A stretch of 64,000 nt of DNA from contig OZ025799.1 of NCBI GenBank assembly GCA_964019425.1, positions 248,001-312,000 of the forward strand, given 5' to 3'. Under the pieces are notes generated by a model. That model had not been told where the DNA came from. It worked only from the letters and a program-made list of their open reading frames with translations, and searched no databases. Every line of letters begins with the position of its first letter. The stretch's first letter is position 1. The stretch comes from Flectonema sp. DT1601. Taxonomy: Eukaryota. Positions 15,762-62,091 of this stretch are shown piece by piece. A program made the position numbers and the translations under genes.

Positions 15762-16820
15762 TTAGTCTTTCGCGTCAGTTATTCCTTCAGAACTGATTTG
15801 GTAAACAGCTTCAGACTCCGGAAGACAAGGGGAATCATGAATTTTACAAATTCTTTGATCACCACGACCCTTTCTAAGATACAATCTAGTAGTCGACGCG
15901 TGAGCCATAACATGACCTCCGACTGGTTTCTTTGGATCAGCTGTGAACATTTGACCACCCGGATCAGATACAACTTGATTAGTGATGTAGACTGCGATAT
16001 TAAATTCTTCCGCAAGTTTGACGAGATGTGAAAGCATTCTTCCAAGTTTCTGTTGTCTATCTGCAAGCTGTCCTCTTCCAATAAAGTCAACTCGGAATAA
16101 CGCGGTGATACTGTCAATAATTAATAACCTAAATTGATCATCAACCATTTTCGCTCCTAACATCCCTAATAAAGATGCTTGATGTTCGTGAGTGTAGGCT
16201 CTCGCTACGATTATGTTTTCAAGAGCTGCTTCAGCTTCTAATCCGAAGCGTTCAGCAATTGGTCTGATTCTCTCCGGTCTGAAAGTACCTTCAGTATCAA
16301 TGTAGGCAATCTTTCCATTACCTCCGTTCATTGAACGGGGTAACTGTGTTGTAACACAAAGAGTGTGAGCAAGTTGTGTTTTTCCAGTTCGAAACTCTCC
16401 AAAGGCTTCTGTGATTGACATTGTTTCGATACCTCCTCCAAGAAGTTCATCGAAGGCTTTACAGCCAGTTGTTATCTTTACAACGTCTGACCGTTTTTGA
16501 AGCGCTTCTACTCCAGAGTGGAATCCGGCAAAACTAACAAACTTCTTAGCAGCGTCGAGTATCTTATCGATCTTTGCATCGCTGAGTCCCTTTATGTCAG
16601 CCAGATCTTTCTTTACGATCATTAATAATCCTCCAACAGTGTTAACACCACCTGCCTTTAGCTTTGCAACATCAGCAGCGCCAATACCAACTTCAGTTAG
16701 TCGTTCGATGTCAGTCCAGCCTTCTTCTGCTTCTTCTTCTTCGGCTTCAGGAGTTTGTTCTACAGGAGCCTTTTCTTGTTCGATCTTGCGCTTTTTCTCA
16801 GCCTGTGGTGCTGTTGGCAT
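15762..16820 (-). CDS. DMC1: Meiotic recombinase DMC1
   Basis: Walker A in [36 protein letters not shown], Walker [33 protein letters not shown]. The EAFGEF, LFRVDF and RQQKL residues are DMC1-type rather than RAD51-type. Confidence 0.93.
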
Positions 16821-17283: not shown

Positions 17284-18177
17284 TCAGCTTAGGTATTTGT
17301 CAGGGTTTTGACTAATATCAGAAAGCGCTTTTTGAACGAAAGCAGCTAAAGGTGATGGAAGGTTATCAAGAGAGAACCACTGAAGGTCATCGTGCTTGTG
17401 AGGTTCCTTATTAGTGGCTTTAAGAGGATCGCCAACCGCAGTTGCGATGTAACCAAGTGCGACCCAATTAGCTCCTGGAGGTGTTTGTGTAGTGACATCC
17501 AGTATTTTGGGGTTTTTAATCTCCAAACCAACTTCTTCAATCATTTCTCTCGATAACGCTTCTTCAACAGTTTCACCCAACTCAACAGCTCCTCCTGGTC
17601 GAGCCCATGTCCCAGGTTCAGATTTAGCATCCGCACTTCTCTTTATTAACAACACGTTCCTTTCATTATCGAATATAAAAGCTCCACAGCCGACTCCAAC
17701 GCAATGTTTTCCGGGTTGAATTGGCGGTTTTGGAGACACCTTTGATGAAGAAAGAATCTTTTTAATTAAGTCGTCTTCATTATCACAAATGCTACTCGAA
17801 GGTATTCCTAAAACACGAAGCCTTGAGAGGATGTCTTTACCACTTGGGTGTTCAGGATTAATCATAACCAAACAATCATGACGCCTTCCAACAATAAATC
17901 CTAATTCAAATAATGAAATAGTACTCGAGACTTCTCCAAACCAGAATACTGGTTTTACCTGTTTCCAATCATCAAGGCAGTCAAGTTCCCATTTACATTG
18001 TTGGATGTGTTCTTCTTCATTTAGCTCGTCGTAGCGTTCATTAATTGGATTTATAATACTGACGCCTAATCCGGTTACAAGTTTTCCTATTCTTTCACGC
18101 CATTGCTCTGTTGCACTTCCAGCAAGGAAGACTGCTCTTTCAGTGACTCGTTCTCCAGGATGATATATGGTACCCAT
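17284..18177 (-). CDS. Nucleoside 2-deoxyribosyltransferase-like domain fused to a Nudix hydrolase, 297 aa
   Basis: N-terminal VFLAGS..WR..IINP..QCKWELDCL..VFWF..ISLFELG pattern; C-terminal VGVGCGAFI plus a complete Nudix box GGAVELGETVEEALSREMIEEVGL. Confidence 0.85.
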   Translation of the reverse strand: MGTIYHPGERVTERAVFLAGSATEQWRERIGKLVTGLGVSIINPINERYDELNEEEHIQQCKWELDCLDDWKQVKPVFWFGEVSSTISLFELGFIVGRRHDCLVMINPEHPSGKDILSRLRVLGIPSSSICDNEDDLIKKILSSSKVSPKPPIQPGKHCVGVGCGAFIFDNERNVLLIKRSADAKSEPGTWARPGGAVELGETVEEALSREMIEEVGLEIKNPKILDVTTQTPPGANWVALGYIATAVGDPLKATNKEPHKHDDLQWFSLDNLPSPLAAFVQKALSDISQNPDKYLS

Positions 18178-18734: not shown

Positions 18735-21700
18735 TTACGGAGCTGTGGTTCGTTTTGTTATTGATGCGAGTTTATTCGCTGCAATCATTAACTCTTCTTG
18801 AATCTTTTTGAACTCTGCAAGAGAAGGTATTCTTTCTAAGTGTGAAAAAGTTGTGATTCGCCTGACAACATTATCAGATGCAGCACTCACTGCATTTAAA
18901 TCTGACTCAGACACAGTCGCAACGGAACAGGACGATGATGATCTGAGAGTCTTCACAGCATTACTTCCATTACCTCTAACTGAAGCCTGCTTAGTAATAT
19001 TAACAGGTTTTCGTATACTCGATCCGCGACGTGGTGGTTGTGGACCGTTGACAGGAGTGCTGCTTTTCTTTTTAATTTGATCAATCTGTTCTTGTTTCTG
19101 TTCAAGTTGTGCTTGAAATGATTTTCTCTCTAAATCTCTTGAGTTGTCCGCCTCAAGTAATGCTTTCTTAGTAGATTCAAGTTCTTCTTTGAGATTATTA
19201 TTTTTATTAGTATCAGTTCCGATTTCACAGTCAGAGTCATCTCCAGCAAGAGAACTATTTTCAGAATCAGAACACAACGACATTGAATCACCAACACGTT
19301 CAACACCGTATCCTACTAAGTTTGGATCGGCATTAAGTCTGTCAGTCAAGGGTGGTTTTGCAAACTTATGAGGCGATGTACACTTTACCCCAATATCATC
19401 AGCATACACGGCTAAATGAAATTCCCCATTCGTAGCCGGAAGTTGTTCTCCATCCTTCGTTGTGATCCCTTGTAATGTTACCCAATAACTGTTCTTCGTC
19501 GCCTGTAAAGTCGTTTCCAAAACGCACTCGTTTGCCCAGAAGGCGTCGCATGCGGCGACTTTTTTTGTTTTAACATGTTCTGAAATTTTTTTATCAGTTT
19601 TTTTCCAATTATCATCAATGATTTCGTAAACCGACAACAACAAATAGACGTCTTTCGAATAACCTAAAATTGTAACTTTTCCAGAACCCGTAATTAAGAT
19701 CATCGGACTTTTTGCTGGAGTGCTATCATAAGAAGAATCCCAAGCACCAGAATATTGAAAAGCGTACCACTCAGAACGAGGTTCTAAAGGTGTGATGTCA
19801 ATGTCTGCTTGATCTGAATAAAAAGCCAAACGATATTCATCTTCAATTGGATTCTCAGTAAAAGGAACATAGACATACGGAATACCAGGTTGTAATGTTG
19901 CGTGAGTTTTTACAGTACAAGAAGACAGATATTCATTGCAAGCAACAAAACTAACATTCTGAGGTGATGGAACGTTGCTTCGAATGTATCTTTTTTGAGG
20001 TGCAAACATAGCATTAAATATTCGACCGTGGAGGTGGGGACGTTCTTTTGCTTCTTCGTTGGTAACATCGTCTTCAGGTATTTCTTCATCATCAGCTGCG
20101 AGAGATTGTTTAACTCTGAAATCATCTATTCTTTTATAAGAAAGAATCACAGTTACAAGTGTTGGTTCTGATACTGTAATACGATACTGATCGGAGTTTC
20201 GCCAATCAAAGTTGTCAACCCCTCTGCCTGTCATCTTTGACCAGAATCCTTCAAAGATTCTTCGAATCCAACCTCCTTCTTCTGGTACATGTGTGACTTC
20301 AATTTGCTCATCTGCAAAGACTCCCAAAACGTAATTCGTATGTTGTTTAGCATGAGCAGTAAATGGTATTATAATATAAGGATCAGGTGATCCTTTCAGT
20401 GTTAGCGATAGAGTGTTCTCCCTGTTTCGATTGTATCTACCAGACGTTATAAATCTTCCATTAAAATCCAATTGTTTTAAACATTTATCAACCAGTAGAT
20501 TCTTATCACCTTTGAACACCGCAATTCCCATGTAAATCGTCTTTCTCTTTAATCGTTTAAACGACTGAGAAACCACTCCTTGATGACCTGCAGCTGCTCC
20601 ATTATCGCAACTGGTGTCACTGAGTACGATGCTTATGTTACAGTCTTTGGGAACTTGTAACATAAATTGAGGATTATCAATAAAAGTGCTGTACGTTGGT
20701 CTTCCACCAGCTGTGAACGTCCCCCACTCACTTTTATACGTGACTCCAAAATAACTAAATAGTACGTTGTTGTTGTTATCACGGATGGTGTGAGATGCTG
20801 TGCTGGATGATCTGTTTTCTGATGTGATGGAATCGCTAAAAACTCTTCCAAGACCTTCAAGTAGTTTAAAATTAATATCAGAGTAGTTTGGATGTTTCTG
20901 AAGGACTGTCATGTTATTTTTATTATTACAACAAACATTAACCAAAGCATAAGCCGTAAGAACCGGTAGTTGTGGATCTCTCTCACCAACAGGTGAGAAT
21001 AACGTTTTAACCAGAATCTGTATCCCGTCAAGCTTTGCTATTTCAGCTTGGCAGCTGGTATGTTGCTGAGCAAGCCTTCCAATAACAGTCACACCAACCT
21101 TAATTAAATCAGCTACTTCAGGAGGAGTGTCTCTGATGAGGTTTATCATTTTATTTAAGAGCCCTCGTTTCAAAAGTTTATCCTTTATTTGAGGTTGGCC
21201 ATCAGCTATCTCTGCCAAAGCACTACAAGCAGACTCCTGAACTTGTTGATGAGGATGAGTTCCTACCATGTCACCTAATTGATAGAGGACATCATCACTA
21301 ACACATTGTTTATTTGAAGAACAACCTCTGACAAGAGATTCTAAAGCTCGACATGCAAATTGCTTACTATGTTCGTCTGATCTCTTTAACACTTCCGACA
21401 CAATTGGAATTCCATCCAGTTCTCTTGCTTCATCCCTTCCCTTCTCATCAACAGCGATAGACAGAGCATATGCTGCATGGGCAATGTAAGATTCTCTTCC
21501 TTTGTTTGCTTTGCAATCAATTAGACATAATAACTTTTTCAGTCCTCCCAATTCTCTAAATTTAGATTTCGAATCAGGAAATAGAATGCAGTGAGAAGTT
21601 AACTCGTGTAGAGATTCAGGTAACATTTTGTATATCCTGCTGAGCTCTTGATTTGTTTTCTGAAGAATGGCTGAAGTTTTCTTTGATAAACGTCTCTCAT

Positions 21701-23195
21701 CAGATAAAGAAGTAGTAGTGGAGCGTCTTTTATGATGTTTTCGTTCAGCATCGTTGAGAATTTGTTGCTGACGTGCGACGTTAGAGCGAAGAGTTCTGAG
21801 CTCGTCATCCATTCGTTTTTTATCTTCTTCAAAGTTCTTTTGAAAATTTGTTTTTTCTCGTGCAGTTCTTCCATCGAGTTGGTTTAACTCCGATTGTCGT
21901 TGTTGGAGTCTATCTTCAATGGCTTGTTGTTGACTTTCGAGGTCAGAAATTGTATTTCTGATTTCCTTTTTATGTCTACTCGCCGCACTGTCATCTTCTG
22001 GAGTTGGGTCGTCGATATTCTTAATAACATCCATCTGAAGAAATTGAGAATCTTCTTGTTTGCTACTGTTTGAAAATTGTTTTGGTTCATCAACAGAACG
22101 TTGAGATAATTTTCCTTCCAATTCAGAGATGTGAGCCCTCATAAGTTCAATCATGCGTTCCATTTCCTCAAGTCGTTTATAATCAATCGGGTTTTTAACA
22201 GGTTTTAACACTACTTTTAATGCTCTCTTACCGAATTCAACTGTTGAACAGCCCTCATTACGATACAATACCGATGCCGACAAACAAAGTATAAAATGTA
22301 TTAAATTATTTCCTCCTAACGATGATTGTAGTAAGTAGGTAAGTTTCGAATCTTTGTAGGGAATGTGAACCTTTTTGTGAGAGTCACGAGCTTGGTTTAC
22401 CAGAGCTTTCACTACATTTGACAACGCAGAGAGAGATTTGTTTATTGCGATTGCTTCTTTAAGTGTTTCTCCAGATGCTCCAGATAAAGCAACTTTTTCA
22501 CTTCCAGCTAAATCAATTAGATTGAGCTTAGCATTCGATCCAGGAGCTACAGTCTCATCCCATTCCAAATGAAACTGTAAAAGCGCGTGACTGCGACTTG
22601 ATAACTGATTCATATCAGTTGCTTGTGTTGATCTATTTTTTGTCGCTTCTGCATAAACTTGAATAGCGTGTTTAGTGCTTTCTATTTCTTTCCAAGTCGC
22701 TCCCTGCGCAATATAATGACCTGATCTGTCTAGTTTAATATCAAGTAACTTTTTATTATGTAAAAGGTCTTGGATTTGATCTTGGTATATCTGAACGTAG
22801 CTCACTTTGATTGATGTTTTTGTCATGTCTTCACGTGCTTCGAATTGACGGAAAATTTCACCAATTAGACGGGGTATTAACCCTGGTGATGAGTCACTGC
22901 CTTCCATGGTGTGAGTCTTTCCACTTCCAGTCTGACCGTAAGCAAATACGGTAGCATTGTATCCCGTAAATAACGACGAAATAACTTCATTATTCAACAG
23001 TGAATAAACTTCTTCCTGAGTAGTAGTCGGTCCGAGAACAGAATCAAATTTACTTCTCACGCATTCGCTGTTTTCTTTTTTATATTCAAGTGCGTTTGAT
23101 CCATTTGCGTAGAAACATTCTTTTTGACCGTCAACACCCTTTTCTTTATCATTTAAAGGACGGATTCTGCAGTACACACGAGGACGGGAGCTCAT
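18735..23195 (-). CDS. Kinesin motor with coiled coil, armadillo-like repeats and calpain domain III-like modules, 1486 aa
   Basis: RVYCRIRP, P-loop AYGQTGSGKT, switch I SSRSH, switch II LIDLAGSE, HIPYKDSKLT; helical repeats such as QVQESACSALAEIA; WGTFTAGG..TFIDNPQF calpain-III signature. Confidence 0.92.
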   Translation of the reverse strand: MSSRPRVYCRIRPLNDKEKGVDGQKECFYANGSNALEYKKENSECVRSKFDSVLGPTTTQEEVYSLLNNEVISSLFTGYNATVFAYGQTGSGKTHTMEGSDSSPGLIPRLIGEIFRQFEAREDMTKTSIKVSYVQIYQDQIQDLLHNKKLLDIKLDRSGHYIAQGATWKEIESTKHAIQVYAEATKNRSTQATDMNQLSSRSHALLQFHLEWDETVAPGSNAKLNLIDLAGSEKVALSGASGETLKEAIAINKSLSALSNVVKALVNQARDSHKKVHIPYKDSKLTYLLQSSLGGNNLIHFILCLSASVLYRNEGCSTVEFGKRALKVVLKPVKNPIDYKRLEEMERMIELMRAHISELEGKLSQRSVDEPKQFSNSSKQEDSQFLQMDVIKNIDDPTPEDDSAASRHKKEIRNTISDLESQQQAIEDRLQQRQSELNQLDGRTAREKTNFQKNFEEDKKRMDDELRTLRSNVARQQQILNDAERKHHKRRSTTTSLSDERRLSKKTSAILQKTNQELSRIYKMLPESLHELTSHCILFPDSKSKFRELGGLKKLLCLIDCKANKGRESYIAHAAYALSIAVDEKGRDEARELDGIPIVSEVLKRSDEHSKQFACRALESLVRGCSSNKQCVSDDVLYQLGDMVGTHPHQQVQESACSALAEIADGQPQIKDKLLKRGLLNKMINLIRDTPPEVADLIKVGVTVIGRLAQQHTSCQAEIAKLDGIQILVKTLFSPVGERDPQLPVLTAYALVNVCCNNKNNMTVLQKHPNYSDINFKLLEGLGRVFSDSITSENRSSSTASHTIRDNNNNVLFSYFGVTYKSEWGTFTAGGRPTYSTFIDNPQFMLQVPKDCNISIVLSDTSCDNGAAAGHQGVVSQSFKRLKRKTIYMGIAVFKGDKNLLVDKCLKQLDFNGRFITSGRYNRNRENTLSLTLKGSPDPYIIIPFTAHAKQHTNYVLGVFADEQIEVTHVPEEGGWIRRIFEGFWSKMTGRGVDNFDWRNSDQYRITVSEPTLVTVILSYKRIDDFRVKQSLAADDEEIPEDDVTNEEAKERPHLHGRIFNAMFAPQKRYIRSNVPSPQNVSFVACNEYLSSCTVKTHATLQPGIPYVYVPFTENPIEDEYRLAFYSDQADIDITPLEPRSEWYAFQYSGAWDSSYDSTPAKSPMILITGSGKVTILGYSKDVYLLLSVYEIIDDNWKKTDKKISEHVKTKKVAACDAFWANECVLETTLQATKNSYWVTLQGITTKDGEQLPATNGEFHLAVYADDIGVKCTSPHKFAKPPLTDRLNADPNLVGYGVERVGDSMSLCSDSENSSLAGDDSDCEIGTDTNKNNNLKEELESTKKALLEADNSRDLERKSFQAQLEQKQEQIDQIKKKSSTPVNGPQPPRRGSSIRKPVNITKQASVRGNGSNAVKTLRSSSSCSVATVSESDLNAVSAASDNVVRRITTFSHLERIPSLAEFKKIQEELMIAANKLASITKRTTAP

Positions 23196-31215: not shown

Positions 31216-33877
31216 GGAAGTCCAATACATTGCGTACTGTGCATCGCTGATACAGCGAACTAGGGAGCATCGGGTTAACTCCCTAGAGCTACGAGGCAAC
31301 AGCAACGTAATTAGACCCAATCTTATTAGGATTGTTTTATTATAGCTTCGGCTGACGGGGCATAATGAACACAGTATGCCTATTGTCAGCTTTCCACCTT
31401 GTCCGATTGTTGTCAGGAAGTGATATGAGGATAACTAAAGAGAAAAGAAAACAAATAAATGAATATATAAAATTAAAAAGAAAATAAAATAAAATATATA
31501 AAAACAAAGACTCTGGGGGCGGGGCGTTTAGATTCTGTAAGGGATAGAATTTTTCTTTATTTTATTTTTTTTGATAATGTTGTATATAACTAAAGGAGAG
31601 TTATCGAACTTGTCTGTTAAACCACGCCGCATCGATACGGCTGTATTGGGAGTCCTGGATTTTGTCGAGGAGCTTTTTCATGCTTGTATCGTTGTTAAGA
31701 TAGTCAGGATAGCAGTACATCCATACCCAATCAAGATTGGTATGTATTTCCTCTATGTCGGTGAGAGTGTAGGCTTCTTTAATGTACGCAACGACTGTTT
31801 TTCGTGTTGCTGTGTTGAAGGTCGGAAAGCTAGTCCACTTATACAAATGTTCCATAAGGTGCTGTTGAGGTATTGCCTGCCATAATGGGAGTTCATGTAA
31901 TTTCATTATCAACTTCATAAGCTCTGGTTGGTGTTCTGTCGAGAAGAATTTGTGGAGGTTTTGACCGACATCCATTTCTCCTTGTTCAAGAGTTGCTGTT
32001 GGTGGGAAGTATTGTTGCACAATTGGGCGTAATGCGAGACAATTGAATAATAAGTGATGCGTGCTTGTTAACGGCTCGTTACAGAAGTTGCAATTCGTGA
32101 GACCCTGAGAGGGGATCTTGATCAAATGGTGGTGACCCGTGCGGAGGCGTGAAATGTGTACTTCATCAGACCGCTTCAGGTTTGGATGGAAGCGTTGAAT
32201 TCTTCCCCCGAGGGTTGACCAATAGTGAACGTGGTTAGAGTCTCTTTCCCTTAACCATATCTTGTTAACTTGATTCGTGATAGAGCACTGAACCATTCGG
32301 TAGTCGAAAGCTACCTCTGTAATTTGGAGAGTATCAGAAGACGCTGCTTTACTTGCTTGCGAATCGGCCAGCTCGTTACCAATTATTCCACAATGGGAGG
32401 GCACAAATTGGAAGGTGATCGGGCGACGGAGCAGCATTATGCGTTTTAAAATTTCCATGTTCGTGGTGGATCTCTGGCGGAGATATCCCTTTGCCAGGCT
32501 GCTTACCGAGGACTGACTGTCGGTGATGATATGGACTCTCCCTCTGGGGAGCCAGGAGGAGTGTTCTTCCAACAGTTCAACTGCTGATAGGAGAGCTTGT
32601 TGCTCCGCATTGTATATCATCAGTGCAGGTGTATAGCGCTTCCTCTTAGAGAAGCATTTGTTTCCTATGATCAGACAGGCTGCATTGCCACATCGATAAT
32701 TCTGTTCTTTGTCTTGGAAATAGGACGCGTCAGTGTATAGTCGGGCGATTGCCGGCGGGAGATTCTTCATTGTTGACAGAGCAGCTTCTAAGTTCTGAAC
32801 AGGTTCCAAGGATTTACGGAACTCTCTCCAGGGGTTAAAAGTTACATCTGGCGGAGGCTCCCATGGTGCTTGGTGATGCGGAAGGCAGTGGTATGAACGC
32901 AACGATGGAGTAGGATATCTGTTGGAGTGGATGGAAGCAAATGTTTTCCACATGCTCGATGTTTTCTCAGGGTCTAAGATGGACCACGAGGGGCTGTTCT
33001 TGTTATTACGCAAGAATCGTTCATTCATCAACGCAGTAGATTTCGAAAGGTGTAGTTTGAATGGTAATATGCCGGATTCTACTGAAAGGGCCGGTGTAGC
33101 TGTTGAGTTAAGGCAGCCGGTAAGTTTCCGTTGGAGAACACGTTGTGTCAGGTCAATCTCCTCCTGCGCCTTTTTGGAGAGGAGGGGAGCAAATGCTGCT
33201 AGACCATAATATGCTCTAGAGAGGATTAGACCGAAAATGACTTGTCGTAGCACCTCAGTCTTTACTTGGTACGATGAGACCATCGATAGGAGAGCAATCC
33301 CACGTTTCAGAGTGTTCAGGATTTTTGTTTTCTGTGATTCAAAGGTAAGATTATCATCAATTATAACACCCAGGTACCGAGTTTGTTTCACCTGACGAAG
33401 TGGGATGGCGGCTGTCAAAGAAAATTCACCCTTCGGAATGGTGTTTATGAATTGCGATCGATTGTTCACGCTACGTCCATTTATACCTAAGGGAAAGATG
33501 GGACCGTTTTCAAAGTTAAGTAAAGCAGCAGCCCCATCATCTATATGATCATAAAAGAATTGATAAGACCCACGTGGAATTGGGACATCATCAACTGTCG
33601 AGGGGAAATAAAGACGCGGACGCCGACAGATGCGTTTGTCTTCCGTAAAACGTTTGCCTATGGACATGTATTCTGTTTTTGAATGGGATAATGACATTCT
33701 GGAGTTATCCAGCCAGCATTCTACTTGACCTATTGCTTTGTTGGCTCTCGCTTCCAAATCGTCGATTGTCGAGCTACTTACATATACCGCAAGATCATCG
33801 GCGTATAGTAGTGAGGTGTCAGATACCGTAATGGACTCTGGTAAGGAGTCAACGTACATTCGAAAAAGTAATGGGCC
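31181..33877 (-). mobile_element. 5'-truncated non-LTR retrotransposon (RNase H-containing, Ingi/I-group-like) with a (TCTA)n tail
   Basis: Starts abruptly inside the RT at GPLLFRMYVD; ORF runs to 31601, followed by a ~390-nt 3'UTR and ~8.5 TAGA units at 31181-31214. A second copy of the 3' end lies at 12341. Confidence 0.92.
31601..33877 (-). pseudogene. Truncated LINE polyprotein: RT C-terminal half, RNase H and zinc-knuckle motif
   Basis: YADD, KTEYM and YLGVIID; RNase H residues LYTDAS, NAEQQAL, IITDSQS, FVPSHCGIIGNELAD; RLRTGH..CNFC..HHLLFNC. The endonuclease and N-terminal RT are absent, and the remaining frame is uninterrupted. Confidence 0.9.
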
Positions 33878-43112: not shown

Positions 43113-44270
43113 TTAATTAAAGTCACCAACGTGATAATTATTATCCCAGTATCCGTGAGTCGCTGGTGTGCATTTACACTTAGCATCTGGTGTGAGGCAC
43201 TGGTAGCAGAATTTGTACCCGCAGCGACATTTCATTTTATCACAGCCGTCGGATTTTACTACTCCTGCACCGCATTTCTTACACATTCGGATATTAGACT
43301 TTAGAAAGTACTCTCTTGTTCGAATCTCTTCCTCTGATGTTCGAACAGAGAGTCGGTGTTCCTCGCATGATTTGTGAAAGTGATAAGGTGATGTTCCACA
43401 GGCAAGGCAGCTACACCTTCTGCACATGCTGCAGTCAAATAGAGCTATCTTATTATCATCTGGTGCCCAAGAAATTACATTGACACAGTCAGGAGTTGGA
43501 CAATTAAACAAAGACGGATCTATTGAAACAGCGTGGTCAATTCCTCTTTTACTCACCGTGTCTAACATATCTGTTCCACATGAACAGGAGATTTCTTTGT
43601 GAGTGAAGAAACCATCACATGTGTCGCCGAGGCATTTGATTCGGACTTGACCAGTTTCAAGAATTGCTTTGGCATGATGATTAATACAGGTAACACAGAA
43701 CGTTGAACCACAACACTGTGTTTGTAGTGTCTCACTTGGTTTGACATCAGAATAACATATCGGGCATTCAGTTATCGCAATCGTTTCAGACAAGTCTTTA
43801 ATTACAGTATTTGGTTGTTCGGAGTTATCTAATAATTCTAAAGCACTTCTCCAATCATTACCTCCTGTTAATGATATTATTTCTCTTACTGCTGTTTGGA
43901 CAGCTGAATGCTCTCGGTTCCATTTATCAGCAATTTTGGCTACACTTTTACTAAAAGTTGATTCGGTTGAATTCTGAAGACACATTTCACATTTTATAAG
44001 CTCAGAAGGATTACAAAAAGTACATTTTTCACAATTCCAAATTTCATTTATCCCATCTTCTCTGTCAGTGCTTTGTGTTGAAATGCCATTTATATTCGGT
44101 TCTCGCAGCTGTTGACACACATCACACTTTAACTCTTCAGGTTCATTTTTATACGTACATAATTCACAACGCCAATATCCTCTTAGCGTACTGGGATGTT
44201 CACACACGTGACAAATATCTTCGATCGATGGATTGGTAAACGTACACTGTAGACACGTCCACTCTGTCAT
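43113..44270 (-). CDS. RBR-type E3 ubiquitin ligase with three N-terminal RanBP2/NZF zinc fingers, 385 aa
   Basis: WTCLQCTFTN..C..C, WRCELCTYKN and WNCEKCTFCN fingers; RING1 CPICY..FCVTC; IBR CPTPDC..CSMC..CLAC..H; RING2 CKKC..KSDGCDKMKCRCGYKFCYQC. Confidence 0.9.
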   Translation of the reverse strand: MTEWTCLQCTFTNPSIEDICHVCEHPSTLRGYWRCELCTYKNEPEELKCDVCQQLREPNINGISTQSTDREDGINEIWNCEKCTFCNPSELIKCEMCLQNSTESTFSKSVAKIADKWNREHSAVQTAVREIISLTGGNDWRSALELLDNSEQPNTVIKDLSETIAITECPICYSDVKPSETLQTQCCGSTFCVTCINHHAKAILETGQVRIKCLGDTCDGFFTHKEISCSCGTDMLDTVSKRGIDHAVSIDPSLFNCPTPDCVNVISWAPDDNKIALFDCSMCRRCSCLACGTSPYHFHKSCEEHRLSVRTSEEEIRTREYFLKSNIRMCKKCGAGVVKSDGCDKMKCRCGYKFCYQCLTPDAKCKCTPATHGYWDNNYHVGDFN

Positions 44271-47550: not shown

Positions 47551-48324
47551 TCAAGAGTAGGCGTACGGAGTCGACGTTGGTGTGAATGGCTCACACGGAA
47601 TAAACCAAAGTAACATATTATCACCCATGACATCTTTAATATTTTTTATATAAGATTTATGAAAAGGATTGCCATCAATATAAGCTGCTTCCATAGTTGT
47701 TTGGTTCTTAAGCGTCTGAACTGTTGTACTGGCACAAAAGAAACCAGCGAAGAATAAAAGAGCAACAGCAATAACAGTATAAATATTAAATGCCAATAGG
47801 ACTGCAACGTTGCTGAGAGCAGGGGCTTTTATTGTGACAAACTCGACGCTGAGCATCATGCGAATTACCATTGTTAAGTAGTGGATGATTATGGCAGTTA
47901 TATACCACAGAAATAATAGAAATATTTTTGTGTTTCGGACTCCGATGCAATTGTCGATCCAATCGCAATGATGATCATATCGAACTACGCAAGCACAGAA
48001 CTGACAATGATGAGTTCGCAGAGGTTTAAAAGAAACGCATTTTGAACAAAACGTAGCTCCCAAAATCTCTTCCTCCAACTCTGGCGGTAATTTCTCCGGA
48101 TTCCATCCCTGCGGTACTTTTCCGGGACTTTTTAACGTCGCCGCCCAAAGACTATAAATTGCCAAGCTTGCTTCTATCACTGCGAATGTCTTGTCATAAA
48201 TTGCATATTTACCAGCAGCGAGTAAATTGAATACCCAAAATATATACATCAATATCATCATGGTAACGAACCATGGGAGAGTAAGGTTCTGCTCCGGGCG
48301 GCTTCGCACTATATGGAGCCGCAT
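47551..48324 (-). CDS. DHHC palmitoyl acyltransferase, 257 aa
   Basis: FCSKCVSFKPLRTHHCQFCACVVRYDHHCDWIDNCIGVRN, four hydrophobic segments and an NQTTME (TTxE) motif. Confidence 0.93.
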   Translation of the reverse strand: MRLHIVRSRPEQNLTLPWFVTMMILMYIFWVFNLLAAGKYAIYDKTFAVIEASLAIYSLWAATLKSPGKVPQGWNPEKLPPELEEEILGATFCSKCVSFKPLRTHHCQFCACVVRYDHHCDWIDNCIGVRNTKIFLLFLWYITAIIIHYLTMVIRMMLSVEFVTIKAPALSNVAVLLAFNIYTVIAVALLFFAGFFCASTTVQTLKNQTTMEAAYIDGNPFHKSYIKNIKDVMGDNMLLWFIPCEPFTPTSTPYAYS

Positions 48325-48755: not shown

Positions 48756-49553
48756 TTAAGTTCTACGAACAAGTGCAGAACTGTATTCTCCAAAAGGAAC
48801 TTCAGGGGGGACAGATACCACCTTCGCAAGGGACTTTTCATTCAGTGAATAGTTCCAGTTTGGATATAATTCTTTTATCATGTTTGGAGTAACATGGTGA
48901 GGTGGACCTCTTTCCAGATTAACTTGGTTTGGGTGGTCGGGGTACAGATCAACATCACCCACGTATTCAGAATTCCTCCACATTCCTTCAATAAACATAT
49001 GACAACTTGTTTTTGATACACGATTCATGATATCAACATACTGCTTACGCATATCAGGGTTTATTGCGACTAAGGATCCTCTGTCGTAAATGAGGTCGAA
49101 TGTGTTGTCAGGCACTTCAGTCATGAGTTTAAAGAAATCACCTCCAAGGATTGTGATTCTTTTTTTAGAATCTTCATCGTTCTTTAAAATGTCAGATATT
49201 CTGATTGCTAAGTCTCTACGACCTGTCTCACTTCCTTCAACCGCTGTTACGTCCATTCCCATTCCAGCGAATATCGGTACTGCTGCAGTGTCTCCACAAA
49301 GGGGAATCAATACTTTCATTTTAGTAGTCTGAGATTCAGATATCCCACAGAATTTAAGGTTGTCTGCAAAAGGCCAAGCATCGTCTTCCACACCTTTCCA
49401 TTTCATGATTCCCTTATTCCAAGTCACATCACACCACCAGTCGACACTTCCTTTAGGCTCTTCAGACATATATAATACTTTTGAGGATCTAAAACGGGTG
49501 CTAACATTTTCAACAACTCGACGAGTTACTTTCACAATCGGAAATCCAATCAT
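48756..49553 (-). CDS. Thiopurine S-methyltransferase (TPMT)-family SAM methyltransferase, 265 aa
   Basis: KVLIPLCGD, VTAVEGSE, GDFF, FDLIYDRGSLVAINPDMRKQY, GPPHHV. The Arg/Ser-rich N-terminus may be a mitochondrial presequence. Confidence 0.88.
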   Translation of the reverse strand: MIGFPIVKVTRRVVENVSTRFRSSKVLYMSEEPKGSVDWWCDVTWNKGIMKWKGVEDDAWPFADNLKFCGISESQTTKMKVLIPLCGDTAAVPIFAGMGMDVTAVEGSETGRRDLAIRISDILKNDEDSKKRITILGGDFFKLMTEVPDNTFDLIYDRGSLVAINPDMRKQYVDIMNRVSKTSCHMFIEGMWRNSEYVGDVDLYPDHPNQVNLERGPPHHVTPNMIKELYPNWNYSLNEKSLAKVVSVPPEVPFGEYSSALVRRT

Positions 49554-50105: not shown

Positions 50106-51452
50106 TTACTGCTCTCTTGTCGATCTAAGAAAGGTTCTTCTTTGTTGTTCATTCAGGGCAGGGCATCCATCAAGAAAACGAAAGTTTTGCGGTCTGCTAT
50201 TACTCAAAGGGGTTAAATCTAAAGTTGATAATCCCTTACAGTTTATTAGAAAACATTGATCAATATTTCTAACATTCGATAAAGGGGATAGATCTAAAGT
50301 AGTAATTGATTGACAATTCGATAAAAAATAATCCGCAATCGATACGACATTGCTCAACGGTGACAAATCAATTTTTAAAATATTTTTACAATCTGCTAAA
50401 AAGTGACCTGATATCGCCGTGACATTAGACAAGGCAGCAAGATCAATTGTTGTAAGTGAACTACAACCACTCATAAAATGATAACCAAACGAACTCAGGT
50501 TACTAAAACAAGAAAGGTCAATACTCAAAATACGACTACAACTAAACAAGAATGATTTCCCTATGAAAATTACATTCAAGAACCCAGATAAATCAATAGA
50601 AATCAAGCCTGTACACCCTGAAAGCATACTATCACCAACATCAGTTACAGAAACCAACGCTGAAAGATCTAAGTGCTGCAATGAGGTGCAACCATGCATG
50701 AAATTCATTTCGATAGTTGTTAATTTACTAAAACAAGACAAGTTTAACCCACATAAACTACTGCAATGGCTTAGAAAAAATCCACCTAAAGTCAAAATAG
50801 ATTCTTCAGGTAGATGTAATGAAGCAAGTCCAATGCATCCAAAAAGAAACCTTTCACCAATAGATGTGAGATTTTTCATCATTGAAAGATCAATGTGCTT
50901 TATTGTTTGACATCCTTCTAAGAAGTTGTCTGAAATAGAGACGATGTTAGTCATTTGTGATAGATCTAAAGTTTGAATACCTCTTGTTGCATGCCATCTA
51001 GCTTTGAAGAATCCACTTCCAACTTTAGTAACTGACTTACAATTAACAACACAAACATGACTTACTGTAGACGGAAGTAATCCTCTCTTTGTTTCCATAC
51101 AGCCAAACTCATCCGAAAATGAATCAGTATCAATATAACAAGTTGTATTTGGATATTTTTCAAACAATTCGCACATTTCAATAAGTTTTTCTAACGATCT
51201 AAAATCATTTTTAGTATATGTGATATGTTGTTTTTTTACAACAGTAAACTCATCGTCTGCACGTAGTCCGAGTGACATAAGGTTAGTCTTCGGGGGAATA
51301 ACTTCTGATGAATACAAAATTTCAATTGTTTCGCCATCAAGATTCCATTCATGTGATGCAGAGTTTATCAGGTCTTCTATGTCTGTCTTTACAGACACAG
51401 TTACTCTCACATCAGTAAAAACAGTCTCTGGAAATGTCAGCGTCACTTCCAT
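50106..51452 (-). CDS. Ubiquitin-like N-terminal domain plus BspA-like leucine-rich repeats, 448 aa
   Basis: About a dozen ~24-aa repeats of the form LxxIDLSxLSNVxxIGxxFLxxC; the N-terminal ~75 aa have a beta-grasp-like pattern (ILYSSEVIPPKTNLMSLGLRADDEFTVV). Confidence 0.88.
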   Translation of the reverse strand: MEVTLTFPETVFTDVRVTVSVKTDIEDLINSASHEWNLDGETIEILYSSEVIPPKTNLMSLGLRADDEFTVVKKQHITYTKNDFRSLEKLIEMCELFEKYPNTTCYIDTDSFSDEFGCMETKRGLLPSTVSHVCVVNCKSVTKVGSGFFKARWHATRGIQTLDLSQMTNIVSISDNFLEGCQTIKHIDLSMMKNLTSIGERFLFGCIGLASLHLPEESILTLGGFFLSHCSSLCGLNLSCFSKLTTIEMNFMHGCTSLQHLDLSALVSVTDVGDSMLSGCTGLISIDLSGFLNVIFIGKSFLFSCSRILSIDLSCFSNLSSFGYHFMSGCSSLTTIDLAALSNVTAISGHFLADCKNILKIDLSPLSNVVSIADYFLSNCQSITTLDLSPLSNVRNIDQCFLINCKGLSTLDLTPLSNSRPQNFRFLDGCPALNEQQRRTFLRSTREQ

Positions 51453-52741: not shown

Positions 52742-55411
52742 TTACATGAAATTCCTAACCACTTCATTCTTCTCGTAGATTGCAACAGGACAGTGCCATT
52801 CTTCTGAGGAATTTTCAATTTCTGATATTTTTCTAAACATCAATACACGATAAAGAGGTAATATCGCAGGAGAACTCTCCCCTTGTAAGATGTTATATGT
52901 TGTCTTCGCTAAGTCAAGTGCACGTGTCGAGAGGTCAGTTCCAGAAATAAAATCTGAAAAAGAAGAAAAGTTAGGACTGTAGTCCTTAATGAGTTCAAAC
53001 CCATGATTGCTACAGAGGGTTTCAACTAACTGTGGAGGTACTAAGAATTCATCTCCACAAACTAAGTCGTTTAAGGAAAAGTGATAACGCATTCCGAATT
53101 GTGGATTATTTTCCAAAACACTCTGAACTGTCTCACGAGGTATCGTTAGAACTGCATCCCCGAAACTGATTTTAACTTCTTCGTAACTTTCACCGACAGT
53201 GTTTTCAATTGCTTTTTTAATCGCATTGTAGTCGGGTGTCGTTGCTACGAAGATTCCATCTTTCCTCAACCTCCCTCCGGCATTGTGAAAAGCTCTGTTA
53301 GCAAGATCAACAGACGAGAAACAGTAATGAATAGCAAACTGACAACTCACTAAATTGAATTTTACATTACACAGAAACTTCTTTTCCGAATCTTCTAAAA
53401 TATTTTCCAGTAAATTCACATCACTCATAGAAGCCACAGAGAATAATGATCTATATTTAAACCCTGTCGTTCTGTAGCGTGAAGCACAGCATTCTATGCT
53501 GCTGGAACTAGTGTCAATTCCGATATATAATCCAGTCTTTGCTGTTGGTGAGAGCATTGAGAATTTAAAAAGATCGCCTCCCTTACCACATCCCAAGTCT
53601 AAAACAGAAAGATGATATTTATCAGGACATAATGAAGCGGAGAATAAAATTACAATTGTTTTGATCCAATTGTTGTATCGTTTAAAGAGATCCGTTTCTC
53701 CAGCGTAGGTTCTGTTTTGAGAATTCTTGATTTCCTTTTCTCCGTTTATATCGTACCTAATGCTCGATTGCGATGATTGTGAACTCTGTTGCTCTTCCTT
53801 TACCTGTAGAACTTGTTCTTTGGATGTGTTGGTATCGGCTTCACTTAATTTCCTCTTTCCAAAATAGTTACTCATCATTTCCGCTGTAATTTGATAAACG
53901 TTATCAACGCTTGCTGCTGCAACATTTTCTAAGTTAGGTTGATCTTTATCATTTCTAATTCTTACGTATGTCCAAATACCGTTATTTGATACTTTACATT
54001 CTATAATCCTATTCTGTAAGTGTTCTTGTTGTTGTGTTGTTAAACCAGTAATGTCACTCATGTATACTAAGGCGTATGGTTTGTCTCTAAGGCAATACAG
54101 TTCATTGTTGATGAGTTTGAAATCTGCTGTTAGCAATTCAGGTGGTTTCCATTTAATTAAATTACCGTCAGCTCCTCTGACGTAATAGCGAACAGGTGTG
54201 AATATGATACCGTCTGTTGGGTACGGAATTGATTTTTGATCTTCAAAAAGTAGTTTATCCATCATGTTGAAATCGAAATACTGTTTTACTGAAATCGATA
54301 TGCCATCAGAAACAATGTCACTGGTTGATTCAGCTGGATAGAACTCAAGGCATTTAGTAAGTCTTGTTTGAAGAGGTTTAGCCATAATTCCGACTCCCTT
54401 TGCTTCAGCTAAGATATCAAATATCATAAAGTGAAAACTGTTATCATGAAACTGGACCAGTTCTCCATCAAAAACTAAGAATGAGTCTTTTGATAAATAT
54501 TGATGTGTATTACTTGAAAGACGCATTGTGTATGCGGTATGACAATGTCTTGAAATTAAATAATACTCCTCCTCTTCGATAATTAACAAGTAACGAGTTC
54601 CGTCGATTTTACGAGAGACTAGATGCGTGTCTGCATTTGGTTGCTGAGATTCTTTTTTTGAAGCCTGCTTGTTAACAAGCTGACCAGATGGCGTAACCTG
54701 AAGACAACCAGAGACTTGAGTTCCAGCAAACGATCTTCCTGCAGCAACTCGTTGATGAATGTGCATTATTTTCTTGTATGTGTTAAAATTCGATACTACT
54801 TTTAAGTTTGGTTCACATGGGATACGTATCTCTATTGGAAGTGAGATACTCGAAGAAGACAATTCATTAATAAACTGTTCAGTTTGATCACAAACATCCT
54901 CAGATGATATCTCTGTCGTATTAACAGTCAGAACACTACCAGGTAATTCTTCTACAGCTTCCAGTAGTAAGAGATGACTTCCAGAACGATTATATATCTC
55001 CAAACGTTTTACTGAATCTTGAGAATCACGATTGCGAGAAACAACACGAGTCTTTGCTACATCATTGTTTACAAGAAGATTGACAACTAAATTCATGTTT
55101 AATTGATATTTCCTTAACAAGTCAGATATGTAAAGATACCCCGCAGGATTTGGTTGTTGGACGTCGAGAACAATGGATTTTGGATTGTTCTTTTTCGATC
55201 GTTTTAAAAAATCGTCAAGTAGCTCCATCACTGTTGTCATATTTTCAAGAGGTGTTTTCTCAGCTGCCATAAACAGGTTTGATTTCGCACGCGCTTCTCG
55301 CAGTGCGTTGCCTGATGAAAAACACAATGATCCACGTTTCTCAAGCCCCTCTGCTAGAAGAGATTTCCCACTCCCTGGTTTACCCAAAAGGATAACTACA
55401 GGAATTGCCAT
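52742..55411 (-). CDS. Putative trifunctional mRNA capping enzyme: adenylate-kinase-like P-loop domain, RNA guanylyltransferase and cap guanine-N7 methyltransferase, 889 aa
   Basis: P-loop GKPGSGKS (aa 10-17) with SSGNALR; GTase motifs I KIDG (K268), III FDGE, IIIa FMIFDIL, IV DGIIF, V KWKP and VI RIRNDK; MTase YNNWIK, VLDLGCGKGGDL (from aa 603), SCQFAIHYCF, G.FVATTPD, EFLV and LYRVLMFRK. Confidence 0.92.
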   Translation of the reverse strand: MAIPVVILLGKPGSGKSLLAEGLEKRGSLCFSSGNALREARAKSNLFMAAEKTPLENMTTVMELLDDFLKRSKKNNPKSIVLDVQQPNPAGYLYISDLLRKYQLNMNLVVNLLVNNDVAKTRVVSRNRDSQDSVKRLEIYNRSGSHLLLLEAVEELPGSVLTVNTTEISSEDVCDQTEQFINELSSSSISLPIEIRIPCEPNLKVVSNFNTYKKIMHIHQRVAAGRSFAGTQVSGCLQVTPSGQLVNKQASKKESQQPNADTHLVSRKIDGTRYLLIIEEEEYYLISRHCHTAYTMRLSSNTHQYLSKDSFLVFDGELVQFHDNSFHFMIFDILAEAKGVGIMAKPLQTRLTKCLEFYPAESTSDIVSDGISISVKQYFDFNMMDKLLFEDQKSIPYPTDGIIFTPVRYYVRGADGNLIKWKPPELLTADFKLINNELYCLRDKPYALVYMSDITGLTTQQQEHLQNRIIECKVSNNGIWTYVRIRNDKDQPNLENVAAASVDNVYQITAEMMSNYFGKRKLSEADTNTSKEQVLQVKEEQQSSQSSQSSIRYDINGEKEIKNSQNRTYAGETDLFKRYNNWIKTIVILFSASLCPDKYHLSVLDLGCGKGGDLFKFSMLSPTAKTGLYIGIDTSSSSIECCASRYRTTGFKYRSLFSVASMSDVNLLENILEDSEKKFLCNVKFNLVSCQFAIHYCFSSVDLANRAFHNAGGRLRKDGIFVATTPDYNAIKKAIENTVGESYEEVKISFGDAVLTIPRETVQSVLENNPQFGMRYHFSLNDLVCGDEFLVPPQLVETLCSNHGFELIKDYSPNFSSFSDFISGTDLSTRALDLAKTTYNILQGESSPAILPLYRVLMFRKISEIENSSEEWHCPVAIYEKNEVVRNFM

Positions 55412-55481
55412 TTCAATTTACTTTGATGCTTTAATAACTAATTAACGAGCAACAACTGTATCAGGTAGGAATCCCTTTTGT

Positions 55482-59474: not shown

Positions 59475-60563
59475 TTATGAAGAGGAAGCCGCTCCAGCTA
59501 AAATTTCATTCCTAATCTCTGATACAGCCAATACCATGTTTTCAAGTTTTTGTTCAGCAACTCTTGTTGGAAGCATCATCATTCCACAATCAGGTGAGAT
59601 CATCAGTCTAGAAGGAGGAATGTCTTCCATAACTGATCTGATTCGGTCCTTAATCTCTGTGACTGTCTCTACTTCGGTTGATGCTATCTTTATAACTCCC
59701 AATACGATACCCTTCTTCTTACAACACTTAAATACCGACTTGTCATTATACCTGTGAGCATCTTCAATACAAATGTAATCTAAATTATCAACTTCATCCA
59801 ATGCCGGCAACAGTCGGTTGTAAGCCTCAGGTGATGCTCTTTTATAATTAGTTTCGTTATTAAGTGAATCGGGATAGCCACAGCAAATATGAACCATCTT
59901 AGTGACATCTGGGTAGGCCTCTAATCCTTTGAAGACATCGTTTAGGTACTTGATGCCAACTGATAAAGCTAGTTCGGGTTGTCTTGCAAAAACAGGTTCA
60001 TCAATTTGAATATATTTAACACCACTCTTAGCCAATGAGATGATTTCAGTGTTTAGAGCTGCTGACATGTCTTTCATGTATGATTCTAGATCGTCTCCAT
60101 AGTGGCTATCTATTATGGTGTCACGGATCGTTACAGGACCTGGTAGCTGAACTTTAACTGGTTTCTTTGTGAACAACTCTGCTGTTAGAATTTCTGATGC
60201 CAAAAATGGTTCCCTTGCTGATACCGGTGCGTTAATGACTGGTGACAGGTAGCTGTAAGCTCCTCCACGGCATTGCTTTTCTTGTAAATTTTTACTATCA
60301 ATGCCTTGTAAGTGACAACAATGATACGAAATATAATCAGCTCTTCTGATCTCACCATCAGTCAAAACATCAACTCCGATTCTGTCGAGTGACTCAATGA
60401 CGTCTTTAGTTGCTTTCAGTTCTGTGTAGTCTCTCATACCATCATTTTTGTTCAGATACTCAACATACAGTTTAACGAAAGAATGAACCTTGTCTTTCCA
60501 CCAGTCAGGAACTTCAAGATAATCAGGCTTTGGATAGGATCCTATTAAGGTTGTTTGCAACAT
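59475..60563 (-). CDS. Cobalamin-independent methionine synthase catalytic domain only (core/half-size MetE-like), ~362 aa
   Basis: MLQTTLIGSYPKP, DVLTDGEIRR, VKVQLPGPVT, YIQIDEP, Zn ligands HICCG and SPDCG, KLENMV. The start is placed at 60563 because a TTAACACAG acceptor-like site lies downstream of the ORF-track ATG. Confidence 0.88.
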   Translation of the reverse strand: MLQTTLIGSYPKPDYLEVPDWWKDKVHSFVKLYVEYLNKNDGMRDYTELKATKDVIESLDRIGVDVLTDGEIRRADYISYHCCHLQGIDSKNLQEKQCRGGAYSYLSPVINAPVSAREPFLASEILTAELFTKKPVKVQLPGPVTIRDTIIDSHYGDDLESYMKDMSAALNTEIISLAKSGVKYIQIDEPVFARQPELALSVGIKYLNDVFKGLEAYPDVTKMVHICCGYPDSLNNETNYKRASPEAYNRLLPALDEVDNLDYICIEDAHRYNDKSVFKCCKKKGIVLGVIKIASTEVETVTEIKDRIRSVMEDIPPSRLMISPDCGMMMLPTRVAEQKLENMVLAVSEIRNEILAGAASSS

Positions 60564-62091
60564 GTTCGGTAGGAATGTAATGGAGAGCTGTGTTAACATA
60601 AGAAGATTAGCTCAAGGAACCAATTAACCAAAACACTACAATGCACGTAACAATAATAACCTGAATTTTGCCTTAACTGATAGCGTTACCTTTACAGGAT
60701 GCAAAAAAAAAAAGAAGAAAAAAAGTAAATAACTATAATTAAATAAAAAAATCAACTTGAAACTGGTTGCCATGTAAAAAAGAATACGTTTAAAAACAGT
60801 AACTACCTACAACGTTGTAACGCATCTGTTTACATGTCTCTTTTTCCTTGTTATCAGTCAGCGGTACGGAATTGAATTATAAATTTGTTTAAATAAGTGT
60901 GAGCCCTGAGAAATTAAAACCAGGGGGGGTACAAATGTAATGCGGTAAAAGTGTAGGTTTCACCCTATTCATTACTTTGTCAAAAAAAAAAAAAAAAAAA
61001 AAAAAAAACATAAAATAATTCTTTTTTTTAATTTCTAGGATGCTTTAGTTTTTTTTTTGCTATAATGGTCGTAGCACACTAAGCCACTCACCTTTAATAA
61101 ATTAAAGGTAGGGTTGTCCCGAATTCAGTAAGAAAACGTGAGGGAGTCTATCGGATGGTTGGGAGATTGGAGCAAAAGCATTCAGCGAGCAAATATCATT
61201 TGTGCCCCCTTCTACGTTCTATGTTCGAACACAGAGTAGATTCTCACAGAAAGGTTTCATGGGGATACGAATATTTTAGTACAGCAGTACTAATTTTTTT
61301 TTTTTTTTTTTCGATAAAAAAAAAAAAACGATAACATTTAAAGTACAATCAATAAAAGTTGTCTTCATTTCAAAGACGAAAGCGTCATCTCTGGCAACTG
61401 TATGCATAGCCATTTTAAATACACATTCGTTCTATTCTTTAATTTTTTTTTGTCACATAAGCCCTATTATGGCTGCCTTATAGTAAAGGTTAGTTCGTTG
61501 AATAAATAATTTTGAGTTCGTCTTCTTGTTGACACGGCATTCAGACTGAACTATAATGTGAGTATTAACACAAACAGCCAGAACTCCGCACAAATTGGCT
61601 GTCGCTCATGCTACAACTTGGGTACTAAGATTAAGCCTATTTATAATGATATAAATTTGCCGTGGGTGGGGGGTGGGGAGTGTGCGGTGATAGAATGACA
61701 ATGTAGAAACAATAATAAAAAAAATAAAACTAAAAAAAAAAAAAGCCTTAAAATACCCAAGTGAAGTAATAAGGTTAAACTGAAAAGCATGGGGATGGGA
61801 GGATTTGTTATATTAAAAAAAAAAAAAACAGAGAAAGAAAGAAAAAAAAAGGAACAGATATTAAATTAAATTGACGGGTCTAATCAGCAAAAAAAAAAAA
61901 AAAAAAAAAATACAAACAAAGAAAATGGGTCGCTCATGCAACAATTATTTTTTTATGCAAAATAAACAATCGGTGTATGAAATAGAACACTAGTTGAAAG
62001 GACCCCAAACAGATCAAAGTATATCAGTCTGGAATCTTCCAGTTAGAGGGAGTGATTTTTTTTTTTTTTTTTTTTTCTTTTTTCTATTCGG

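Follow-up and report, generated by a model that had tools for sequence, protein, structure and literature searches.

A stretch of 64,000 nucleotides from Flectonema sp. DT1601 (contig OZ025799.1, positions 248,001 to 312,000; hereafter, the window), which contains no N, carries on its minus strand an 889-amino-acid open reading frame (ORF) without an internal stop (Table 1). Four Pfam domains lie along this frame above their cut-offs: ADK (amino acids 8–145, E = 3e-6, 27.9 bits versus a cut-off of 26.8), mRNA_cap_enzyme (252–422, E = 1e-17), mRNA_cap_C (459–500, E = 3e-9) and mRNA_G-N7_MeTrfase (PF03291; 540–811, E = 2e-46, 159 bits versus a cut-off of 26.6). The result bears out an initial annotation of this DNA, which had proposed a kinase-fold domain, an RNA guanylyltransferase and a cap N7-methyltransferase on a single chain. 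The G+C content at third codon positions (GC3) is uniform over the three domains (0.29, 0.29 and 0.32) and similar to that of neighbouring genes. We describe the gene as intronless on the basis of its open frame and its full-length colinearity with one transcript ORF, that of the closest relative (54% identity, 99% cover).

The two capping modules are intact. The guanylyltransferase (amino acids 208–516) matches structure 3rtx at E = 2.5e-22 and contains motifs I (SRKIDG, 266–271), III (FDGE, 314–317), IIIa (IFDIL, 330–334), IV (DGIIF, 400–404) and V (KWKP, 420–423), followed by an OB domain with motif VI (RIRNDK, 484–489), named by the usual nomenclature. Motif VI residues R484, R486, D488 and K489 are invariant in all five members of the family described below. 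The methyltransferase domain matches human RNMT structures at E = 3e-21, and its S-adenosylmethionine (SAM) motif and cap-pocket residues are conserved, with D605, G607, G609, D613, D633, Q691, H695, Y696, E788 and Y854 invariant in five of five members. Pattern searches placed K16, K268, the guanylyltransferase motifs and the SAM motif where they had been predicted. A full-length AlphaFold2 model built from 2 sequences was set aside (predicted local distance difference test (pLDDT) score, 30.8).

Flectonema neradi supplies the closest relative, a complete ORF on a transcript. A HMMER search over 1.84 billion representatives gave 3264 matches at E = 0.001; two more full-length members stood among the best 150, which we inspected, from Diplonema japonicum (905 amino acids, 34% identity) and Namystynia karyoxenos (1252 amino acids, 32%), and Pfam recovers all domains in all three relatives, whose transcript ORFs are 27–55% identical. 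A kinase profile built from the four members picked one further protein out of 207, P0130 (716 amino acids, on a 2.5-kb contig), which aligns with the family over 688 columns (probability 100) and whose N-terminal domain scores 47.4, compared with a best score of 20.9 in 60 shuffles. The methyltransferase is on the chain in every member. The five members form one clade in the guanylyltransferase tree (25 rows; support 97/94) and, together with the stand-alone methyltransferase P0110, one clade in the methyltransferase tree (36 rows; 97/91); viral clades exclude the family in both trees, whose rows are a hand-picked subset of the matches and include long branches. P0110 itself has 402 amino acids, a WW-like N terminus by eye, a long branch and an odd composition. 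Flectonema, Diplonema and Namystynia are diplonemid genera, so the window most probably comes from a diplonemid. The triple fusion is genuine and is an old, conserved feature of this group. An artefact of assembly or gene prediction that joined separate genes, including the two-gene alternative that the initial annotation had set against its own reading, has a negligible probability and is in effect refuted by three independent diplonemid transcriptomes, each with one colinear ORF, and by the P0130 record. Members differ in their additions: the D. japonicum linker between guanylyltransferase and methyltransferase contains two CxxC pairs (amino acids 539 and 561), found in one of the five members, and the Namystynia protein has a 310-residue extension with 8 RGG repeats, a weak hint of a possible association with RNA granules.

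The N-terminal domain has the fold of a nucleoside monophosphate (NMP) kinase, as had been predicted. An AlphaFold2 model of amino acids 1–190 from 4 sequences has a mean pLDDT of 80.7, and its best structural matches are uridylate kinase (Z = 17.0, root-mean-square deviation 3.0, 176 residues aligned) and adenylate kinase (Z = 16.3), with a Foldseek match at E = 5e-8; the domain profile matches the short-LID adenylate kinase 1p4s at E = 3e-14. K16, R38, R122, R126 and R128 are kept in five of five members and D83 and R136 in four of five. Their counterparts in short-LID adenylate kinase are the P-loop lysine, the STGxxxR arginine, the LDG aspartate and the ERxxxRxR..R arginines. Residues of this type bind ATP, magnesium and the acceptor phosphate in adenylate kinases, in which the DG[FY]PR motif is the AMP-selecting part. 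That motif is replaced in all five members (DVQQP, DVNQP, DTRSP, DFSPR and NYVPK), and the NMP-binding segment is shorter than in short-LID adenylate kinase. The domain thus shares fold, P-loop and LID arginines with adenylate and UMP/CMP kinases (PDB 1p4s, 2cdn and 1ukz) and differs from them in the replaced motif and in its fusion to capping domains; its score also lies far below the NCBIfam adenylate-kinase cut-off (38.5 versus 262 bits). Because the AMP-selecting motif is lost and the catalytic residues are kept, the acceptor site would be the part that changed. This pattern points to a live kinase with its acceptor NMP in another setting, for example an RNA 5′ end, and speaks against a plain adenylate kinase, one form of the ordinary NMP kinase that the initial annotation had named as an alternative. 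It is consistent with a kinase whose acceptor has changed, rather than with a triphosphatase.

The relationship of the family to the trypanosome nuclear enzyme requires separate consideration. In trypanosomes, nuclear capping of the spliced leader is the work of TbCgm1 (Tb927.7.2080) together with TbCet1 (PMC11417388, PMC8311971). As Cgm1-like references we used two proteins only, P0003 (Phytomonas) and P0057 (the euglenid Entosiphon), a label taken from their layout. They lack a kinase domain and group together in the guanylyltransferase tree (96/90) and in the methyltransferase tree (99/89); in the ESM Atlas, P0003 leads to giant-virus clusters. Motifs I and III are 40–62 amino acids apart in the five members versus 130 and 143 in this pair, and motif VI and the SAM motif 80–147 versus 269 and 289. 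The best guanylyltransferase and methyltransferase trees keep the family apart from the pair. Grouping of the family with the trypanosomatid protein alone, as expected of a vertically inherited Cgm1 in diplonemids, was borderline in the approximately unbiased (AU) test (p = 0.04 for guanylyltransferase, p = 0.06 for methyltransferase). Since a separate lineage of euglenid and trypanosomatid guanylyltransferase–methyltransferases occurs in both trees, a nuclear enzyme older than diplonemids would exist apart from the family, a point in favour of the recapping function proposed below.

We propose, with a probability of roughly 0.6, that the protein is a self-contained cytoplasmic recapping enzyme on one chain, a predicted function that draws on conserved residues and on analogy with trypanosomes. 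The N-terminal domain would add a phosphate from ATP to decapped 5′-monophosphate RNA (pRNA), yielding 5′-diphosphate RNA (ppRNA), a step suggested by the residue pattern and by analogy. Intact motifs argue strongly for the other two steps, in which K268 would form enzyme–GMP and hand GMP to ppRNA, and the C-terminal domain would methylate N7 with SAM, making the cap irreversible. In T. brucei, cytoplasmic TbCe1 converts pRNA to ppRNA and then to GpppRNA, and TbCmt1, also cytoplasmic, is proposed to add the final methyl group (PMC11417388). DCP2-like proteins are reported present and ALPH1 absent in diplonemids, and the product of DCP2 is 5′-monophosphate RNA (PMC13069679). Because DCP2 leaves pRNA, a kinase is required before capping, and a chain of kinase, guanylyltransferase and methyltransferase is exactly the set required to undo DCP2. 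The initial annotation had envisaged all three cap-0 steps with a P-loop 5′-phosphatase or kinase, acting on spliced-leader RNA or in recapping; the kinase is favoured by the retained phosphotransferase residues and by TbCe1 being an RNA kinase (PMC11417388), the phosphatase finds no support, and recapping is the better supported of the two roles.

Several observations weigh against recapping. Small-molecule NMP kinases are the closest structural matches, ahead of polynucleotide and fungal RNA kinases (Z = 12–13.5). P0130 has Asn in place of D83, and the P0011 residue opposite R136 is Gln in one alignment and Arg in another. The TbCe1 kinase is adenylate-kinase-like, and any kinship between it and the kinase domain of the family is putative; TbCe1 was absent from the matches of three sequence word searches and from the best 150 of the 3264 HMMER matches. 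If the genome has no Cgm1 and Cet1 of its own, the ORF protein must cap the spliced leader; moreover, AU tests did not reject the family and both Cgm1-like proteins as a single clade (p = 0.455 and p = 0.118).

This last result bears on the possibility that the protein is the nuclear spliced-leader capping enzyme, a counterpart of Cgm1 that would act on ppRNA from a separate triphosphatase and use its kinase to rescue over-trimmed ends. Guanylyltransferase and methyltransferase on one chain are the Cgm1 layout, a FastTree methyltransferase tree joins the family to the Cgm1-like pair at 92 with a long-branch warning, and searches too insensitive to establish absence (one word search missed a 34%-identical relative) yielded no Cgm1 orthologue from diplonemids. 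The much shorter motif spacings, the borderline grouping with the trypanosomatid protein and a simple pattern scan that gave no conserved nuclear signal across the family make this role improbable. The family is probably not a Cgm1 orthologue, and the proposal of the initial annotation that the protein unites Ce1 and Cgm1 becomes doubtful: the Cgm1-like layout features are lacking and there is no joint branch, although the AU test does not reject a sister relation. Less probable again is a three-step de novo capping enzyme in which the P-loop domain strips the gamma phosphate of 5′-triphosphate RNA, by hydrolysis or by donor-site transfer to a nucleotide, and which would constitute a third class of capping triphosphatase. 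The domain does occupy the place of the triphosphatase in metazoan and giant-virus enzymes, and adenylate-kinase chemistry is reversible phosphotransfer; however, it is the acceptor-site residues that are changed, not those of the donor site, the measured activity of TbCe1 is that of a kinase, and trypanosomes use a separate Cet1 for triphosphate removal (PMC11417388, PMC8311971).

The trypanosome translation machinery suggests another role. TbG1-IP (Tb117.5, Tb927.11.6720), which has a guanylyltransferase (409–701), two zinc fingers (711–780) and a methyltransferase (774–1039), binds EIF4G1 in a cytoplasmic eIF4F-like complex (PMC4105752, PMC5750579) and is contained in stress granules (PMC4105752, PMC5750579, PMC4652759, PMC10810786, PMC6597758). 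TbG5-IP (Tb927.11.14590), with an NTPase and a guanylyltransferase, also belongs to a cytoplasmic eIF4F-like complex (PMC4105752, PMC5750579), and a 142.1-kDa T. brucei protein combines NTPase, guanylyltransferase and zinc-finger modules (PMC4105752, PMC5750579, PMC10810786). The initial annotation had overlooked these three proteins. The diplonemid protein might likewise be a cytoplasmic, eIF4F-associated cap remodeller. Its guanylyltransferase and methyltransferase would use ppRNA as substrate or attach to caps, and its kinase fold would sense nucleotides or phosphorylate small-molecule NMPs, not RNA. The guanylyltransferase modules of TbG1-IP and TbG5-IP, the position of the D. japonicum CxxC pairs at the place of the TbG1-IP zinc fingers and the ranking of NMP kinases as best fold matches all favour it; we nevertheless consider it rather unlikely, given that the CxxC pairs occur in one of five members and that the loss of the AMP-selecting motif alongside retained catalytic residues speaks against a dead domain as well as against a plain adenylate kinase. 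Recapping and this role can both be partly true.

Searches beyond the family yielded no comparable fusion. The kinase profile at E = 1 found none among 3567 ORFs from 95 loci; among the matches listed, no significant fused kinase was present at any of at least 120 further viral loci, and 119 viral guanylyltransferase ORFs (about 40 of them short fragments) had no significant kinase match (best E = 0.22). Phage records contained no family match, and pattern scans of metagenome and viral contigs returned nothing or ordinary guanylyltransferases only. A 520-amino-acid guanylyltransferase (L001, 1402–2964, plus strand), with a 240-residue N-terminal extension that by eye recalls a decayed kinase, was rejected because 20 of 60 shuffles scored as high; it adjoins a permuted papain-like gene. 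Other cap N7-methyltransferase fusions involve an FtsJ 2′-O-methyltransferase, a TIR domain and the activator RAM (P0016, P0030 and P0033). P0193, a 745-amino-acid guanylyltransferase from Epipyxis, has a long N-terminal domain with Glu-x-Glu motifs that is tunnel-triphosphatase-like by eye and without a Pfam match.

Within the window, all 16 ATG-initiated ORFs of at least 150 amino acids lie on the minus strand, and by eye ACAG occurs close upstream of many of them; this arrangement would fit polycistronic, trans-spliced euglenozoan genes. The Rad51-family recombinase, the RBR-type ligase, the DHHC palmitoyltransferase and the TPMT-like methyltransferase are ordinary eukaryotic genes, and none is linked to capping. 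The ORF with reverse transcriptase and RNase H similarity has a GC3 of 0.47, compared with approximately 0.3 in its neighbours, and is likely to be a retroelement fragment.

Table 1 Features of the capping-protein gene and neighbouring ORFs, in window coordinates
Feature	Coordinates	Strand	Evidence
Whole ORF, 889 amino acids: kinase-fold domain, guanylyltransferase, OB domain, cap N7-methyltransferase	52742..55411	-	
Adenylate/NMP-kinase-fold domain, amino acids 1–186, short-LID type; predicted RNA 5′-monophosphate kinase	54854..55411	-	Pfam ADK, model, fold matches, profile match
P-loop GKPGSGKS, amino acids 10–17; K16 invariant in 5/5 family members	55361..55384	-	Pattern, alignment
Guanylyltransferase nucleotidyltransferase domain, ~amino acids 200–425; motifs I, III, IIIa, IV, V	54137..54814	-	Pfam, profile, pattern
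Motif I lysine K268, to which GMP is predicted to attach; KxDG in 5/5 members	54608..54610	-	
Guanylyltransferase OB domain, ~amino acids 426–516; motif VI RIRNDK	53864..54136	-	Pfam mRNA_cap_C
S/Q/E-rich linker, low conservation, ~amino acids 517–555	53747..53863	-	
Cap guanine-N7 methyltransferase domain, ~amino acids 556–865	52817..53746	-	Pfam, RNMT structures, conserved residues
SAM motif LDLGCGKGGD, amino acids 604–613	53573..53602	-	Pattern
ACAG, candidate trans-splice acceptor, 44 nt upstream of ATG	55456..55459	-	By eye
Rad51-family recombinase	15762..16820	-	
297-amino-acid fusion, nucleoside 2-deoxyribosyltransferase-like and NUDIX	17284..18177	-	PF15891, E = 2e-12; NUDIX, E = 1e-20
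Kinesin, 1486 amino acids, with armadillo repeats and calpain domain III	18735..23195	-	
752-amino-acid ORF, partial reverse transcriptase and RNase H	31601..33859	-	
RBR-type ligase with RanBP zinc fingers	43113..44270	-	
DHHC palmitoyltransferase	47551..48324	-	
TPMT-like methyltransferase	48756..49553	-	
BspA-type leucine-rich-repeat protein; N-terminal segment ubiquitin-like	50106..51452	-	Ubiquitin-like segment by eye
Cobalamin-independent methionine synthase, 374 amino acids, catalytic domain only	59475..60599	-	

Cytoplasmic recapping is debated, and the teamwork of TbCe1 and TbCmt1 in trypanosomes is a hypothesis; a conserved three-module fusion would be evolutionary evidence for one pathway, which a single protein makes directly testable. 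The RNA kinase of mammalian recapping had still to be identified in 2024, and the vaccinia capping enzyme is unable to phosphorylate pRNA (PMC11417388); a one-pot enzyme for capping pRNA would be of use. The family also provides a lead on the trypanosome proteins G1-IP and G5-IP. A bolder possibility, which we hold tentatively and at less than even odds, is that this is the first natural single polypeptide to take any 5′-monophosphate RNA to cap-0 and that it survives as the ancestral form of a cytoplasmic capping clan in Euglenozoa; loss or decay of domains would then have given rise to TbCe1, TbG5-IP, TbG1-IP and the 142-kDa protein. If so, recapping would be an old, dedicated pathway of Euglenozoa and the enzyme a one-tube tool to cap 5′-phosphate RNAs.

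No description of the triple fusion was found in the capping, recapping and diplonemid literature, a coverage that left out the primary TbCe1 papers and the EIF4E6 paper, and the initial annotation had likewise known of none. Poxvirus and giant-virus trifunctional enzymes (vaccinia D1, PDB 4ckb) have the same order of 5′-end enzyme, guanylyltransferase and methyltransferase, but they begin with a tunnel triphosphatase (PF02940 on P0026 and P0107), and the family with an NMP-kinase fold. TbCgm1 shares guanylyltransferase and methyltransferase on one chain with the family. TbG1-IP, TbG5-IP and the 142.1-kDa protein mix the same modules, and the available text of their sources describes all three modules together in none of them. 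The order of guanylyltransferase, zinc fingers and methyltransferase in TbG1-IP resembles the D. japonicum member, whereas such zinc fingers are absent from the 889-amino-acid protein; the first 408 residues of TbG1-IP have no assigned domain in those sources, where the family has a kinase of 186 amino acids. Because of these unassigned residues and the placement of the CxxC pairs, TbG1-IP may be an orthologue of the family, perhaps with the same layout hidden in its N-terminal 408 residues. With TbCe1 the family shares an N-terminal NTP-binding/kinase domain fused to a guanylyltransferase; TbCe1 is a two-domain chain without a methyltransferase, whereas five of five family members carry one as a third domain. 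In the T. brucei recapping pair, TbCe1 and TbCmt1, which we compared by description only, the same three activities would lead from pRNA to m7GpppRNA in a euglenozoan setting (PMC11417388). On our best reading, which compares Ce1, G1-IP and Cgm1 by layout and description, this pair is the functional counterpart: the family is a conserved diplonemid three-module capping protein, whose probable job, recapping on one chain, falls to two proteins in trypanosomes.

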